NCBI GenBank assembly: GCA_965203055.1
Contig: OZ241863.1
Location: forward strand, 928,001-992,000
From: Spirochaetia bacterium
GTDB lineage: Bacteria; Spirochaetota; Spirochaetia; SZUA-6; Bin103
DNA: 64,000 nt
Direction of reading: 5' to 3'
Of the stretch, positions 39,001 through 45,000 are shown piece by piece. How positions within the stretch are numbered: position 1 is the first letter of the stretch; every line of letters starts with the position of its first letter. Position numbers: made by a program.

Positions 39001-42000
39001 TGCGGCACCCCGGCGTCGTAGTAGGACTGCGCCCGGTACCACTTCATGCGCAGGTCGGCGAGCAGCGGGCGGCCGACGGCGCCGGCGTCGAGGGCGCGCT
39101 TGACGCGGTGGTTGCGCGGCTGGTAGCGCTGCTCGAAGTCCACCGCCAGCAGCAGCCCGCGCTTCTGCGCTTCGTGAATCGCCGCATCGCACGCCGCGGT
39201 GGTGATGTCCATCGGCTTGGTCATGCACACGTGCTTGCCGGCGCGCAGCGCCTGCAGCGCCATCCCGGCGTGGGAGCCGCTCGGCGTCCACAGACCGACC
39301 ACGTCCACGTCGGCGCGCTTCAGCAGTTCGTCGTAGCTGTCGAGCCACGGCACGCCCAAGTCGCGCTCCGCCTCCCGCCCGCGCGCGGCCGACAGGTCGC
39401 ACACCGCCACCAGGTCGGCTCCGGGGGTCTGGGCGCAGAGCGACGCGCGTCCCTCGCCCATGCCCAGTCCTACGATTGCGAACCGTATCGTCGCCGCCAC
39501 ATTTCCTCCCCGCGCATGGTAGCCGAAACGCCGCCCCGCGTCAGGGGGGCTGATCGCCGGCGGCGGTGATGACCGGAGGATGCGCCCAGTCCAGGTAGCG
39601 CTCGCCGACCCGCGCCGCGGCGCAGCCGCCGGCATGCCACAGCACGCGGTAGCGAAACGTGGCCCGCGCGCCGGCCTCCAGAGTCCAGTCGCCGCGCCGG
39701 CGGTGGCCGCTGCGGTAGTCGGCCAACCCGAATGGATTGGCGGCGAACAGACCGTAGCCGCGCACGTGCCAGTGGGTGGGGTAGAGCGGGTTGCGCGGAT
39801 GATCGAATATCGCCGCGCCCACGGTACGGGGCGTGCCCGCGGCATCGGTCACGGCGCCCGAATAGTCCACCCACGGCGCGCGCTGCCCCCAGGTCTCCGC
39901 TTCATGGAGCGCGCCGTAGGCGTTGCTGATGGTACCGCCGCGGCTCTCCTTGATCGCTTCGTGGACGCGCAGGGCGCAGAGTCCGCCCTCCTTGGTGTCG
40001 CCGAAGGTCACCGCGCCGCGGGCGGCGTGGAAGGTGACGGTCAGGTCCAGCAGCCGCGCCGCGGCGGGCGTGTTCCAGAACGTCAGGGTACGGCGTTCTT
40101 CCAGCAGCGGCGGGCTGGCGGCGCCGCCCGCCCGCCAGTTCACGCGCTGCACGATGCGCCCGAACGCCGGGCCGCTTTGCACCGCCTCGAAGCCGTCGTG
40201 GACCTGGCAGCCGTGCCCGTCGGCCTCGCTCCAGAAGTCGACCCCGTTCACCAAGCCGTGGGCCACCCAGAACGAGCGGTGGTGCACGTGGTCGGTCGCT
40301 TCGCCGGGCACGTCGGCAAGCGGCCAGGCGCGCGTCATCGGCAAGCCGTACGGCCCGATCACGGGATGCAGGAAGGAACGCACCGGATGCGCGGCATAGT
40401 GGTAGCGGCACCACAGCGCCCCGTCGACGGTCACCTCCAGGTGCGCCCCGCGGTCGCTGATCCGCACCCCGCCGGCGGGCGCGGCGCCGCCGCCTGTCAC
40501 CTCGACCCGCTCTCGGGCCGCAGCCGCCAAGTAGGGGAGTACGCACCACCGCGCCCCGTCGTCGCCCGCCTGCAGCGGCACGGCCGGCGCGCCGCCCGCG
40601 ATGCGCAATGCCGCGCCGCCGCCCTCCACCGCCGCCGGCGGCAGCTCCACCGGGCAGTGGACCCGCTCGTGCGGTCCGGCCTGAATCTCCAGCTTCCCCA
40701 CCGTCCGGGCGACGATAGCCCAAAACCGCGCCCGGCGCCACCGCGCCGACAGGAAATACGCTATCATGTCGCCCGCAGGACATGGCATACCGTAGTAGCG
40801 CAGCATGGGAGACGATTTGTCTTGGGGACGTTGCGGCTATCACCATGGGCCAGTCACCGCCGACGAGCTGCTCGCAACGAATGGGGCGCATTTCCCAAAT
40901 GTAGGTAAGCGACAGGCCGCTTGGCGGCCAAGCCCAAGTCCCAGTGTAAGATGACGTTTCTCGGCGATCTTGATCACCGGTCTACCGGCGCCTGACGATC
41001 CTCGCTGGGGCGCCCGAATCCGGCGCCGGCGTGGCGGTAGCGGTGATGGGCGGCGCACAGCAGCCGGAGATTGTTCGGCTCGGCGGCGCCGCCGCAGGCA
41101 TACGGCACGACGTGATCGATCTGCAGCAGGTGTTCGGAGCCGCAGCGGCGCCCGCTGGTGCGGTCCACGTAGCGGCAACGGCCCCGGTCGCGCCGCCACA
41201 CCTCGCGCTTGACCGCCGCCGGGATGGCGCGGCCGGTCACGCCGCCGGCCTTCGCTGCCGAAGTTTCGGTCCGCGCCGGCGGCGCGGGCTGCGTCGCGCC
41301 CGCCGTCGCAGCCTGACGGCCGGGGCGCCGCGTCTTCGGCGCCGAAGTGGTGTCGCCCGCCGGTTTCACTGCCGGTTTCACCGCCGAAGTGTCCGGGCGG
41401 TCCGGGCCGCGGTTCGCCTGCAGCGGCGAAGCGGCTTCGTCTCCCGGCTGCGCCGGCGTCTGAGCCGATACCTTCGCCGCCGAAAGAGCGGCGCGGTTCG
41501 CGCTGACCTCCTGCTTCGCTGCCGAGGCGGCGCTGCGAGCCGAGGCCGCCTGCGTCTTCGGCGCCGAAGTTTGCTCGGCGCCTTTGGCCGGCGCGGTGCG
41601 CCGTCCGCGCGGCGGCCGGGCCGGATCGTGGCGGTCGAGACCTTCCCATACCAGCCGCCCCATGAGCTGCCCCATCGTCAGGTGCGGATCGACGTGGGAC
41701 AGGAGGCCCTTGAGCCGCTCCAAGCCGCGCCGGCACTCATCGTCGATCACCGCCTTGAGTTCCCAACGCCCGCCGCCCAGAGGCCGCACCCGATCCGCCG
41801 GCGCCGCCAGCTCCGGGTCCACCTCGGCCAGCAACTGCATCACCTCCCGGCTGCTCTTGCCGGACGCCTGCTCCACCAGCTCCCGCCGCGCCTCCGGGTC
41901 CAGCACCGCCGCCGGCGCCGGCTTCCGCTCCGCCGGCCGCGGCGGCGCCGAGCCGTTCTGCGACTGGGCGGCAGCCCCGAACCCGGCCCCGCCCGGCGCG

Positions 42001-45000
42001 CTACGCGCCGCCCGTTCCTTCTTGCGCTCCTGCCGGTCGAACGCATGCTGCAACTAGGCGGCCGCGTTCAGCGTCATCGAGCCATTCCCGCAGGCGCTCG
42101 CGCACGCCCTCCACGTCCGCGCAGAGGCGCATCGCCTTGATGCGCCGCCACGCCGCGGCGTCGCTGTAACCCAGCTCGCGCACCGCGTAATCGAACAGGC
42201 TCGAGAACCCGCGGCGCAGATACAGGCGGCGCTTATGAATCTCGCGCAGGTGGTCGATCACGACCACTTCGAGATGGTGTTCGATGCGGGAAAGTTCCTT
42301 GGTCCGCTCCAGCAGGCGGTCGTCTGAGAGGGCGGAAACGGTAGTGGTGACGGCCCCGACCGAACCCTGATTGTTCATGACATAAGTATAACCATGGAAA
42401 CCACTTGAGTCAAGTTCTTCGGCCTGGAATATGCCACCTGCGGGAGTGACTCGGCGGCGCATTTCCAAGCGGCTAGACGTTCCGTCAGATGCTGCTCGTT
42501 GTTGTTTCACCATGAGCGCGGCGCGGTACTCGTGGTACGCCTTTCCCGGCGGCGGCTTCGAGGGCGGGATCGGTACCAACAAATTGGAAGTGCGCCCCAA
42601 CGAATGGGTGCCCGTGACGCGGACCATGAGCGGTGCTATCATCGGGTAGCGATGAAGCAGCTTGATCGAGGTTCGTCATGACCAGCTATCAGGTGGTGGC
42701 GTGGGGCCGGCCGCTGGAGCGGCGCACCTGCCCGACGCCCGACCCGCAGGGCACTGAAGTGCTGTTGCAGGTGGAGATGTGCGGGGTGTGCCACAGCGAC
42801 CTGCACATCCACGAGGGGTATTTCGACATGGGCGGCGGGCGCCGGCGCATGCTCACCGATCTGGGGGTGCAACTGCCGCTCACCCTGGGTCACGAGCCGG
42901 TCGGCACCGTGGCCGCGGTCGGCCCGGAGGTGGATGACCCGCAGGCCGCGGGGGTGCCGGTCGGCGCGCGCCGGGTGGTGTGGCCGTGGGTCGGGTGCCG
43001 GCAATGCGCGGCCTGCCGGCGCGAAGAGGACATCCTGTGCGAGCGCGGGCGCTACCTGGGGGCGCGGGTCGACGGCGGCTTCAGCGACCACCTGCTGGTG
43101 CCGCATCCGCGCTACCTGCTGCCCTGCGCCGGCATCGCGCCGGAGGTGGCGGCCACCTACGCCTGCGCCGGCATTACCGGCTACGCGGCGGTGAAGCGCG
43201 CCCTCACCACCTACCCGGAGAGCGCCGGCACGCTGGGCCGGATCGGTTCCGGCGACACCCTGCTGCTGGTGGGCGCCGGCGGCGTCGGGTTGAGCGCGCT
43301 GCGCGCGGCCCGCGCCCTCACCGCGGCGCGCATCGTGGTGGCGGACATCAGCGCCGAGAAACGGGCGCTGGCCGAGGCCAACGGCGCCGACGCCGCCATC
43401 GACGCCGCCGACCCGGACGCCGGGCGCCGGCTCAAGGAGCGGAGCGGCGCCGGCGTCGCCGCGGCGGTGGACTTCGTCGGCCGGCCGGAGACGTCGCAGA
43501 TGGCGATCGACTCGCTGCGCCGCGGCGGCACCCACGTCGTCGTGGGCATGTTCGGGGGCGCGCTGACGGTGTCTATACCCGACTACGTCTACAAGCTGCT
43601 GGCGGTACGCGGCTCGCACCTGGGGACGCCGCAGGACCTGCGCGAACTGATCGAGCTGCGCCGCGCCGGCCACATCGAGCCGCCGCCGATCGCGCGCCGG
43701 CCGCTGGCGGAGATAGACGAGGTGTTCACCGATCTGCACGCCGGCCGCATCCCCGGCCGCGTGGTGCTGGTACCGTAGCGATGGGCGGCCGAAGCGCGGC
43801 GGCCGCGGCGCCGCGGCGGGTGGTGATCACCGGCGCCGCCGGCTACGTCGCCGGCCTCATGCTGCCGGACCTGCGCCGCCGCTATGACCTGACGCTGCTC
43901 GACGTGCGCCGGGACAATCGCGGCGGCGCGGCGGTGGACGGCGTGACGCTCGCGGACCTGACGGAGAAGGACCGCGACCGCTACCGCGCTCATTTCGCCG
44001 GCGCGGACGCGGTGGTGCATACCGCCTTCGTGCGCCCGCGCGGCGGCGCCGCCAACCTCGGCGCCATCGCCTCCCGGAGCGAAGCGCGGTTCCGCTCCGA
44101 GTTCGCCAACGTGGCGATGGCCTACAACATCTATCAGACGGCGCGCGAGGAAGGGGTGCGGCGGGTGGTGATGATCAGCTCCAATCATGCCGCGGACTTC
44201 TACGAGCCGCTGATCCTCGACGGCGCCTGGGACTTGGTCACCCCGGAGATGCAGGAGCGCGCGGTGGGCTACTACGGCTGGGCCAAGGCCTCCTACGAGC
44301 ACCTGGGGTTCATCTTCGCCCAGGGCGGCCCGGGCGAGGCGCCGCTGGAGAACGTGCAGATTCGCATCGGCGGCCCGCGCGAGGATGACCTGGAGCGCGC
44401 CGAACCGGGCAACATGCGCCAGGTGCGGCGCGGGTTGGCGGTGTACCTGAGCCGCCGCGATCTGGTGCAACTGATCGTCAAGAGCGTCGAGACCTCCGAC
44501 ATCCGCGACCGCCACGGGGTGCCGTTTCAAGTGTTCTACGGCATCAGCGACAACTCGCACGCCTTCTGGAGCATCGCCAACGCGCGCCGCGTCATCGGCT
44601 ACGCGCCGCGCGACAACAGCGAGGTGCGCTTCCGGGAGCAGCTTGCCCGCCATCTGGCCGCGGCCGGCGGCGAGTGAGCACTTTCGCCCCAATGGCTGAG
44701 GCGGCGCCGCGCGCCCGCGTAGCCGACCTGTTCCGCGACCACCTGCCGCTGATCGGATGGTCGGCGGCCTGCGGTCTGCTGTTCGCCGGGACCACGTTGA
44801 TCCCGCCGCTGTACGTGCGCGGCCTCATCGCCGCCATCACCGAACCGCCCGCCGGCGCCGCCGGCGGCCCGGACGGCGTCTCGCTGGCGGTGGTGGCCGC
44901 GGCGCTGGTCGGGGTGTTCCTGCTGCGCGGCGCGGCGCGCTACCTGTACGGCCTCACCTCGCATCATGCCGCCTACGCGCTGCTGGCCGACCTGCTGCAG

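Follow-up and report, generated by a model that had tools for sequence, protein, structure and literature searches.

The HNH cassette and its ends

Within the window, the 64,000-nucleotide stretch of a Spirochaetia genome (G000) that was analysed, positions 40884–42597 are occupied by a non-autonomous HNH cassette of 1714 bp with its gene on the minus strand, which is delimited by sharp repeat boundaries, inverted ends and a 9-bp target-site duplication. An earlier note had placed a mobile unit here, and it proved to be real: it starts with GGGCGCATTTCCCAAATGTAGGTA at 40884, its last bases are TACCAACAAATTGGAAGTGCGCCC (42597), and the perfect duplication claimed for it is present as a left copy of CAACGAATG at 40875–40883 and a right copy at 42598–42606, scored 9/9. 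The proposed match of the unit ends to those of the resident ISKra4-family insertion sequence (IS) was borne out by end alignments. The left (L) end at 40884–40920 (plus strand) is an IRR-type terminal repeat that resembles the IS right end, including a GCG(T/A)CAGGC stretch that, in the IS, includes the stop codon of the transposase gene, and matches it through GCGTCAGGC. The right (R) end at 42574–42597 (minus strand) is a 24-bp IRL-type terminal repeat identical to the IS left end at 23 of 24 positions.

The HNH nuclease gene (40974–42378, minus strand) was recognized from its open reading frames and a PF01844 HNH match. The copy in this unit is a pseudogene: a 1-nt frameshift lies near 42085–42090, seen as 1-nt differences from the other copies, and an in-frame TAG at 42054–42056. 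The gene has its own promoter, TTGACT-17-TATACT (42385–42413, minus strand; score 10/12 with 0.1 expected in shuffles), and because the ATG follows only 6 nt after the −10 box, its mRNA is probably leaderless. Beyond the promoter, an inner IRR-like end (CGGCGCATTTCCAAGCGG...; 42455–42499, plus strand) overlaps the stop codon of a DrmMI-type gene remnant at 42495–42569 (minus strand), which consists of 75 nt from the C-terminal part (..HPALEAAGKAY.EYRAALMV..) and maps to genome positions 1765945–1766014 of a full composite. Outside the unit, the −35 box (GTGACG) of the neighbouring gene at 42678–43778 begins 16 nt beyond the R end, within a weak promoter-like site (42614–42642, plus strand; 9/12). 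The window also holds a second HNH cassette of 2360 bp (15660–18019, minus strand) with an intact gene (15725–17134), an 8/9 duplication and a longer DrmMI-type remnant than that of the first unit. A full-length DrmMI-type (type IIG methylase-like) gene of 1350 aa at 52288–56340 (plus strand) belongs to the family that supplied the cassette remnant and has no flanking repeats.

Copies of the cassette and of the ISKra4 element

Searching the genome with the 1714-bp unit by blastn yielded 106 HSPs, which corresponded to 51 loci, 33 of them near full length; a locus was counted if at least 300 nt of the HNH gene region were present, and the 51 loci include fragments. The near-full copies lie at 33 dispersed sites with unique flanking sequence, and about 14 of them are broken or truncated. 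When strict end criteria were applied, 10 of these 33 copies retained both ends, 9 only the L end, 6 only the R end and 8 neither; this distribution is close to the 9/20/6 (both, one and neither) previously counted among 35 genes. Identity between HNH units, calculated from 342 ordered pairwise comparisons among 19 units, reached a maximum of 94.6% with a median of 91%, and the units are old. Other forms in the genome are a 5184-bp composite (3066010–3071193), whose 9-bp duplication is perfect, and a deletion derivative of 531 bp with a 7/8 duplication; rearranged or inverted junctions are also present (e.g., at 2268150–2269811). A search for empty, pre-insertion sites of the HNH units recovered none.

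The ISKra4 element is present in eight full copies of 1523 bp, as the earlier note had reported, but not all of them are identical: six are, one differs at 2 sites and one at 27, the last being the very copy cited there as an example (273723–275245). Its transposase was correctly assigned to the ISKra4 family (NF033572, 214.6 bits vs. an NCBIfam cut-off of 205). Target-site duplications flank all eight IS copies and measure 8–9 bp instead of the 7–9 bp given before. With six of eight copies identical, the IS is young, and the copy at 623721–625243 is younger than its host HNH unit because it is nested inside that unit. Since six of the eight IS copies are identical while two HNH units are never more than 94.6% identical, the present IS burst left no detectable new HNH copy. 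The amplification of the HNH units thus appears to be old and the current IS burst recent.

Insertion signatures

Clean duplications had been regarded as rare among the HNH units. Instead, we found perfect duplications of 8–9 bp in 5 of the 19 end-bounded units and duplications with one mismatch in 4 more, the other 10 units showing none at all. A control with mismatched flanks (342 pairings) produced one perfect 9-mer, which was an artefact from a shared flank, two perfect 7-mers and six matches with one mismatch; compared with this control, duplications of IS length are strongly enriched in the HNH units.

Guerillot et al. 2014 (PMC3942029) describe that the transposases of the ISKra4 group, ISLre2 and TnGBS prefer targets about 16 bp (13–17) upstream of the −35 boxes of sigma-A promoters. 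We scored −35-like hexamers with at least 5/6 matches to TTGACA at offsets 13–17 from the element ends. The L (IRR-like) end lay 14–16 bp upstream of such a hexamer in 8 of 28 HNH units (p = 7e-11), as did 4 of 10 IS right ends (p = 1e-6), compared to 1 of 26 HNH R ends, none of 9 IS left ends and a random background of 0.84% of 200,000 positions. The HNH units and the IS right ends fit the target preference published for the ISKra4 group.

Composite origin of the units

The gene fragment carried by the units had been called MmeI-type; it stems from a DrmMI-type gene, namely from an internal stretch of the C-terminal part and not from the 3′ end. In all 20 mapped units the R repeat is joined to this gene at position 1766014–1766019, and deletion junctions are common to subsets of the units. 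All G000 units go back to a single ancestral composite, which began with IRL and the DrmMI-type gene, continued with an inner IRR just past the stop codon of that gene and with the promoter and HNH gene, and was closed by an outer IRR. The HNH gene was probably captured when the outer IRR came into use; loss of internal parts of the DrmMI-type gene would have resulted in units of 1.5–2.4 kb, which would then have multiplied in several sublineages.

The HNH protein

Intact copies code for a protein of about 450 aa, which is composed of putative helical DNA-binding modules, a disordered linker and an HNH nuclease domain. In searches of Pfam and NCBIfam with the 453-aa product of the single long ORF, the C-terminal HNH domain (PF01844, 28 bits vs. 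a Pfam cut-off of 21.4) was the sole match, and no transposase domain was detected; family matches were sought only among the ORFs called for the region. In a set of 23 sequences, residues D407, H408, N422, H430, H431 and H435 never vary, and the fold shows a weak match to the GVE2 HNH nuclease (Z 4.9). An RNA-guided nuclease of the IscB/HEARO type was rejected: NF040563 reached 23.9 bits vs. a cut-off of 175 and covered the HNH part only, and a RuvC domain is absent. No Rfam match indicating a structured RNA was better than E 0.37 in 40600–42900.

The dN/dS values for 19 intact copies were 0.11 in the N-terminal domain, 0.35–0.47 in the HNH domain and about 0.9–1 in the linker, and purifying selection has kept most copies of the gene intact. 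The gene tree is star-like, with terminal branches holding 91% of its length. We infer that the HNH protein may favour the persistence or spread of its own cassette rather than being inert cargo. A more specific idea is that the protein acts as an accessory nuclease, is directed by the DNA-binding domains that it carries, and increases the cassette's retention or copy number; this seems rather unlikely to us. If true, the protein would be a protein-guided counterpart of TnpB/IscB, and the gene and its promoter would be a portable selfish module parasitizing no fewer than three lineages of DDE transposons (two ISKra4, one ISL3) across a whole spirochaete family.

The HNH proteins may also constitute a multigene family serving the host, e.g., as defence or DNA repair nucleases, with the transposon ends only acting as a vehicle. 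In favour of this, many separate, old copies are under purifying selection, 20 of the 23 other genomes from the bacterial family contain members (1–80 matches each), and in the ancestral composite the HNH gene is linked to a defence-like gene of the DrmMI type. However, the copies look redundant and not diversified, because the putative N-terminal DNA-binding region is nearly invariant across the paralogues. Together with the 14 or so broken or truncated copies among 33, the swings in copy number between 0 and 80 among the relatives, and the lack of any match of the protein to a defence family except a weak one at the level of the HNH domain, this renders a host-serving role improbable.

HNH genes in related genomes and the mode of mobilization

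In the related genome G003, the HNH units are 2.2–2.5 kb long and have ends starting with GGGTGCATTC..., the IRL end being identical over 53 bp to that of G003's own ISKra4 element. The ends of this element differ from those of the G000 element, and the G003 units contain fragments of its transposase gene. Their duplications scored 9/9, 9/9, 8/9 and 7/9, and 3 of 6 IRR flanks contain TTGACA or TTGGCA at exactly offset 16. A third type of end was found in G021 and G019, where HNH genes adjoin the ends of a resident ISL3 element; among the genes listed, an ISL3 end follows beyond the stop codon in 6 of 10 (G021) and 4 of 8 (G019), and those ISL3-type units that were examined lacked a clean duplication. 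For the close relative G011, the HNH matches number 36 and belong to the same subfamily, and neither the ISKra4 protein nor NF033572 gave a match in its genome. In G005, the ends of the genome's own abundant ISKra4 element are absent from all 8 HNH loci.

Many HNH copies in other genomes are without recognizable ends. In 4 of 6 loci of G011 the shared homology spans only the region from the −35 box to a point some 20 nt beyond the stop codon, and it is confined to the ORF in all 7 loci of G017. This is what would be expected if the HNH gene and its promoter were mobile by themselves, like a free-standing homing endonuclease gene that spreads via nuclease breaks and repair, with the IS ends being incidental; the recurrence of the gene and its probably leaderless promoter in three unrelated end contexts and the purifying selection on the protein in 19 copies are in line with it. 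In G000 and G003, however, the repeat unit extends to the inverted ends and not to the gene borders. The IS-length duplications and the distance of 16 bp that separates the IRR-type end from −35 boxes are hallmarks of a DDE transposase and not of homing, and all G000 copies have the junction to the DrmMI-type fragment in common. The end-less copies did not reveal a conserved target sequence, and their upstream flanks show a faint similarity to the upstream region of the G000 units (by eye), which fits the decay of old copies. We consider it hardly probable that homing accounts for the units, although it may apply to the end-less copies of G011 and G017. Even less credit is due to segmental duplication or recombination of IS copies with HNH genes, by which the shared ends would be nested insertions instead of signs of whole-unit mobilization: one unit indeed harbours a nested IS copy, rearranged or inverted junctions such as that at 2268150–2269811 occur and 10 of 19 units have no duplication, but the five perfect and four near-perfect duplications sit exactly at the outer ends with almost none in the controls, the flanks at the 33 dispersed sites are unique, and the star-like tree and shared internal deletion junctions fit the copying of whole units.

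We therefore consider it likely that the unit is a transposase-less transposon with ISKra4-family ends, which was inserted by an ISKra4-type transposase supplied in trans. The matching ends, the IS-length duplications, the −35 spacing and the units of relatives carrying different IS ends (those of G003's own ISKra4 element or of ISL3 elements in others) all argue for this, and the movement in trans suggested in the earlier note gains support from the duplications, the spacing and the G003 ends. Such an enzyme, a prokaryotic Mutator-like transposase of the DDE type, would generate duplications of 8–9 bp and insert with the IRR-type end some 16 bp upstream of the −35 boxes of sigma-70 promoters. 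Because the IS copies are much younger than the units and G011 has no ISKra4 transposase, the mover can be described as ISKra4-type, but not demonstrably as one of the resident copies; which transposase copy acted, and when, we can only infer. With inverted repeats matching those of an IS, no transposase gene and duplications of IS length, the units can be classed on sequence grounds as Pack-MULE-like mobile insertion cassettes. An HNH nuclease gene would thus have reached dozens of copies by borrowing the transposases of other elements.

Comparison with known systems

Guerillot et al. 2014 (PMC3942029) mention four ISKra4 elements that carry additional genes of unknown function. The HNH units share with the ISKra4-group IS the structure of the ends and an insertion site about 16 bp upstream of the −35 boxes of sigma-A promoters; unlike these IS, which keep their transposase, they lost or never had one and outnumber the autonomous element. 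Pack-MULEs of plants are described, also in that paper (PMC3942029), as non-autonomous Mutator-like elements with host gene fragments. The HNH unit likewise appears as a non-autonomous element of the Mutator superfamily with a captured host gene fragment (DrmMI-type) and inserts near promoters, but it is bacterial, adds a complete, selected and putatively expressed gene beside the fragment, and has terminal inverted repeats of 24 bp and not the long ones of MULEs.

In MIC231 of Bacillus cereus, IS231 ends reportedly surround a passenger gene. The HNH units are similar in that IS terminal repeats flank a passenger gene, a transposase is absent, the duplications correspond to the ones made by the parent IS, and mobilization would occur in trans. 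They differ from MIC231 by having a Mutator-like ISKra4 element as a partner and a nuclease gene under selection as cargo, by numbering 30–80 per genome and outnumbering the IS, and by the recurrence of one cargo with the ends of three IS lineages. TnpB and IscB nucleases reside in IS200/IS605 and IS607 elements and may favour the retention or spread of these elements. The HNH nuclease is by analogy also encoded inside a transposon without being a transposase and may act in the same direction, but it has no RuvC domain and no RNA family match, and any targeting would be by the protein.

The REP13E12/DUF222-HNH proteins of Mycobacterium tuberculosis are about 450 aa long, carry an HNH domain at the C terminus in addition to a helical N-terminal region, and are encoded by multiple dispersed copies of about 1.4 kb. 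The HNH protein shares this length, the helical N-terminal region, the C-terminal HNH domain and the multiple dispersed copies. Unlike in those proteins, PF02720 (DUF222) was not detected in its N-terminal region at E values up to 1, nor in any of 25 relatives at E values up to 0.01. A DUF222-named Atlas cluster, found as a language-model look-alike, scored 0.94, which we take as a lead only.

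The HNH unit and its copies in the genome

The flagged HNH unit, a copy of a transposase-less repeat with an HNH nuclease gene, occupies positions 40884-42597 of the window (C1:968884-970597, C1 being the whole contig). It starts with GGGCGCATTTCCCAAATGTAGGTA and finishes with TACCAACAAATTGGAAGTGCGCCC, which form imperfect inverted repeats, and CAACGAATG is found immediately outside each end. Its minus strand carries two overlapping ORFs of 213 and 359 aa, the second with a Pfam HNH domain, which are the broken form of a protein of ~450 aa that is intact e.g. at C1:3383250-3384611; the breaks consist of a 1-nt frameshift near 42085-42090 and an in-frame TAG at 42054-42056. 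The near-consensus promoter of the gene (TTGACT-17-TATACT) finishes 6 nt before the ATG and, therefore, the predicted mRNA is probably leaderless. Downstream of the stop codon lies a hairpin, GGCCGC-N3-GCGGCC. At window 42376-42413 and the homologous sites in L071 and L028, TATA[CT]TTA is followed after 5-6 nt by the ATG. Because this -10 region and its spacing are conserved among genes whose proteins are only about 55% identical, the start, probably leaderless, is part of the conserved module.

Using the flagged unit as a blastn query on the genome of this sponge-associated lineage (4.56 Mb, 68.8% G+C, one contig), we obtained 106 HSPs representing 51 loci that cover 300 nt or more of the gene region, 33 of which were near full length. 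Under strict end criteria, 10 of these 33 copies retained both ends, 9 the L end only, 6 the R end only and 8 neither, which is close to the census of copies by retained ends in the earlier note. The reading frame was intact in 18 or 19 copies. The ISKra4 element of the same genome (the IS) is 1523 bp long and present in 8 full copies plus fragments, and its 467-aa product scored 214.6 bits with the ISKra4 model (cut-off 205). Six of the full copies are identical, one has 2 differing positions and one has 27. The HNH cassette is several-fold commoner than this autonomous partner.

Terminal repeats, target-site duplications and target preference

The R end of the HNH units is identical to the left end of the IS (IRL) at 23 of 24 positions, and the L end tracks the right end (IRR) through GCGTCAGGC, which contains the transposase stop codon in the IS. 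Duplications of 8-9 bp were present at all 8 IS copies. Among the 19 HNH-type units having two recognisable ends, perfect 8-9 bp duplications occurred at five (C1 968884, 2169524, 3324926, 3383159 and the 5184-bp composite 3066010-3071193), four had a duplication with one mismatch and ten had none. Identical scoring of 342 mismatched pairings of the same flanks yielded one perfect 9-mer, two perfect 7-mers and six one-mismatch cases, the single 9-mer arising because two of the listed units have one flank in common.

The 5.2-kb composite at C1:3066010-3071193 lies between an IRL-type end and an HNH-unit L end, is flanked by the perfect 9-bp duplication AGTGCCCGC, and contains a 630-bp derivative, 2.9 kb of other DNA and a full HNH unit. 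Short tandem repeats (TAGG, GGACA, GTCA) abut some L-end junctions outside the window (C1 234564, 328574 and 4152291), and some L ends hold expansions of GTAG/GTAGGTAG. Two more small families start with the same 14-nt repeat core and diverge beyond it, continuing …AAAGTGTGTTGGTGACTGCC… or …AAAAACGCAGGTAGCGTCAGTCGGA… (listed as two groups, C1 1281227, 1727358, 4102300 and C1 599637, 1814265, 2493298, 4255029); both probably represent further miniature derivatives or solo ends.

According to Guerillot et al. (2014, PMC3942029), the insertion sites of TnGBS, ISLre2 and several ISKra4-group elements lie ~16 bp upstream of the -35 box of sigma-A promoters, and the orientation of insertion is ascribed to the asymmetry of the two IRs. 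We scored flanks for hexamers matching TTGACA in at least 5 of 6 positions and starting 13-17 nt from the end. Such hexamers were found at 4 of 10 IS right ends, all at offset 16 (p 1e-6 vs. random), and at none of 9 left ends; correspondingly, they occurred at 8 of 28 L ends of HNH units, which are of the IRR type (offsets 14-16, p 7e-11 vs. random), and at 1 of 26 R ends. The background was 0.84% of 200,000 random genome positions, and other 5-nt windows in the same L flanks gave 8/224. At the flagged unit itself, the sole -35-like site is a weak one, GTGACG, 16 nt from its R end. This oriented preference common to the IS and the units is independent of the end sequences and hard to explain other than by integration through an ISKra4-type transposase. 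The HNH units add to the bacterial data on the unusual promoter-targeted insertion of these transposases.

The HNH protein and selection on its gene

In an alignment of 23 sequences, low-complexity linkers divide the protein into three conserved blocks (residues 1-125, about 160-260 and 368-435), and the HNH residues D407, H408, N422, H430, H431 and H435 are invariant. Confidence in the AlphaFold model is high for the N-terminal block alone (pLDDT about 90, against a mean of 61), and Foldseek gave no match in the PDB at E up to 0.001. Weak matches were obtained with VIA, in which residues 16-190 resembled ParB/Spo0J/KorB DNA-binding domains (Z 6.1-6.9), residues 203-258 ribbon-helix-helix domains (Z 4.3-6.2) and residues 365-442 HNH nucleases (Z 4.3-4.9); these predicted fold similarities may serve as leads only. 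Pfam DUF222 was not detected in the protein or 25 relatives, and a language-model cluster named DUF222 was among its nearest. The profile search gave 2886 representative clusters with E of 1e-30 or lower, making this a widespread architecture.

For the 19 intact copies, pairwise dN/dS was 0.11 in the N-terminal block, 0.52 in the middle block, 0.35-0.47 in the HNH block and 0.9-1.0 in the linker, values which are biased downwards by the use of intact copies only and have to be read together with the shape of the tree: because it is star-like, most of the underlying divergence arose after the copies had separated. The 33 near-full copies contain 24 in-frame and 25 frameshifting indels, distributed as 21 vs. 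5 in the linkers and 3 vs. 20 in the three conserved blocks. This pattern is suggestive of selection, confounded by repeat-driven indels of 3n length.

Age of the units and search for an empty site

Pairwise identity among 19 HNH units has a median of 91% and a maximum of 94.6%, and terminal branches account for 91% of the length of the tree of 19 intact HNH genes. The burst of the IS is recent, and one IS copy (C1:623721-625243) is inserted in an HNH unit, exactly 16 bp upstream of the -35 box of the HNH gene itself. From the divergence of the units, the recent burst and the nested copy, it follows that amplification of the units preceded the multiplication of the present IS copies by a long time. 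Being strong, the promoter of the HNH gene may itself attract ISKra4-type insertions, which could explain why the gene repeatedly ends up beside such ends.

No site orthologous to that of the flagged unit was found in G011, the closest genome searched, because the flanking genes are scattered there and only 73-80% identical, and mapping the G011 flanks back onto the genome under study revealed no insertion site in common. Public reads from four runs were examined as contigs. Two runs bridge the left junction as in the window and two diverge from it at 40861, while one right-flank contig begins exactly at 42598 behind 275 unlike letters. None of the contigs connects both flanks across the unit, and hence these four runs provided no clean empty site.

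Origin from a DrmMI-type composite and proposed mechanism

The unit sequence adjoining the R end is not derived from the IS and matches an internal C-terminal stretch of a family of genes for 1300-1350 aa. This DrmMI-type family (DISARM methylase-like, type IIG) has at least 8 copies in the genome, among them window 52288-56340 and C1 2066957-2071018, 2594736-2598683, 4383968-4387885, 1765579-1769532, 1398057-1405272 and 2836975-2838810. In PADLOC the protein gave a full-length match to DrmMI (1306 bits), and in Pfam it matched Eco57I, MmeI_Mtase and MmeI_TRD. One of the genes is interrupted at C1:1399588-1402013 by an ORF pair (511 and 297 aa), which we take to be IS21-like from the ORF N-termini, judged by eye.

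At three loci, the HNH gene directly follows a long or full DrmMI-type gene, and at two of these an IRL-type repeat is located ~100 bp upstream of the DrmMI start (repeats ahead of two DrmMI-type genes at C1 1405390 and 2838909). Where the HNH gene is present, the DrmMI stop codon lies within an IRR-like end, TGACGGAACGTCCAGCCGCTTGGAAATGCGCCG; the same arrangement is seen in the IS, whose transposase stop codon lies within the right end. The DrmMI-type gene, a defence-type gene, thus seems to be carried by these transposon ends as well. The upstream IRL and the stop codon in the IRR-like end therefore point to an ancestor consisting of IRL, DrmMI-type gene, inner IRR, promoter with HNH gene, and outer IRR. 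The junction of the R repeat with 1766014-1766019 is common to all 20 units mapped on the full composite, and further deletion junctions (1765726>1765848 and 1765613>1765743) are common to subsets of units, which means one capture, followed by internal deletions and then by the expansion of several sublineages. Short derivatives lacking the HNH gene were limited to two, of 531 and 630 bp.

The HNH unit is best read as a non-autonomous Mutator-like (ISKra4-type) cassette. The transposase would have used a second, more distal IRR, by which the neighbouring promoter and HNH module would have been captured; deletions would then have shortened the cassette, and its amplification would have taken place in trans. 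Gene-less derivatives are scarce and many old copies are under selection, which suggests that the nuclease may help its own cassette to persist. Homing by the nuclease itself, segmental duplication and a gene family serving the host are each contradicted by part of the data.

In the way it works, the HNH unit most resembles mobile insertion cassettes and Pack-MULEs, and in its protein the DUF222-HNH/REP13E12 group, although it lacks the Pfam signature of the latter. Known transposase-less cassettes with cargo genes comprise a few cases in Bacillus and Aeromonas, usually single-copy and with host-useful cargo. In contrast, the cargo described here is a nuclease under selection in many separate old copies, and in related genomes the ends of unrelated IS families also enclose homologous cargo. 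A literature search returned nothing on HNH cargo between ISKra4 or ISL3 ends, one methods paper only on REP13E12 with HNH and, among the papers listed for DUF222 and judged by that listing, nothing on transposon ends. The cassette offers a testable system for gene capture by bacterial Mutator-like elements, which would be a bacterial counterpart of Pack-MULEs, and for whether nucleases besides TnpB/IscB aid transposon persistence.

HNH genes and transposon ends in other genomes

Among 23 other genomes of the family, 20 contained the HNH protein (1-80 matches each), and the same query found it in none of 17 genomes of the order that lie outside the family. In 8 of the 23, the ISKra4 transposase had close homologues (E below 1e-100). 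In genome G003, HNH units of 2.2-2.5 kb are 92-98.8% alike and have GGGTGCATTC... ends. Their IRL side is identical over 53 bp to the single matching ISKra4 copy of G003, whose transposase is 54% identical to that of the genome under study, and their IRR side contains fragments of the G003 transposase gene. The duplications match at 9/9, 9/9, 8/9 and 7/9 positions, and TTGACA or TTGGCA stands at exactly offset 16 in 3 of 6 IRR flanks. These units consist of a 228-bp IRL-IRR miniature element, an antisense HNH gene, a transposase remnant and an IRR, i.e., they have the same IRL-IRR-gene-IRR topology as the units of the genome under study but with the gene reversed, so a separate capture is indicated.

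Three genomes run against a simple rule. All 8 HNH loci of G005 lack the ends of its abundant ISKra4 element. G011 contains 36 HNH matches with 67-92% identity to the query protein, only 2 of 6 loci keep type-A ends, and no ISKra4 transposase was found there by protein or family model. In G017, the repeats are confined to the ORF at all 7 loci, no ISKra4 or ISL3 transposase was detected at the thresholds used, and some degenerate ISL3-type ends adjoin HNH genes. A de novo search for inverted repeats around the HNH genes of 13 genomes, which was swamped by GC-rich chance matches, recovered the cases of G003, G019 and G021 only. A protein search of a plasmid collection matched the HNH motif alone, in 4 records.

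In G021 and G019, the HNH genes adjoin GGGTCTTC...TTCGTGTGG ends of a resident 1334-bp ISL3 element (PF01610, E 6e-68; 8-bp duplication). An ISL3 end lies 43-63 bp beyond the HNH stop codon in 6 of 10 listed genes of G021 and 4 of 8 of G019, and several of these units have both ends. No ISL3-type ends were found beside the HNH genes of G011 or of the genome under study. The latter contains one intact ISL3-family element at C1:293944-295266 with ends GGG(G/T)CTTC..GG..TTTCGTGTGG, which is related to the one flanking HNH genes in G019 and G021.
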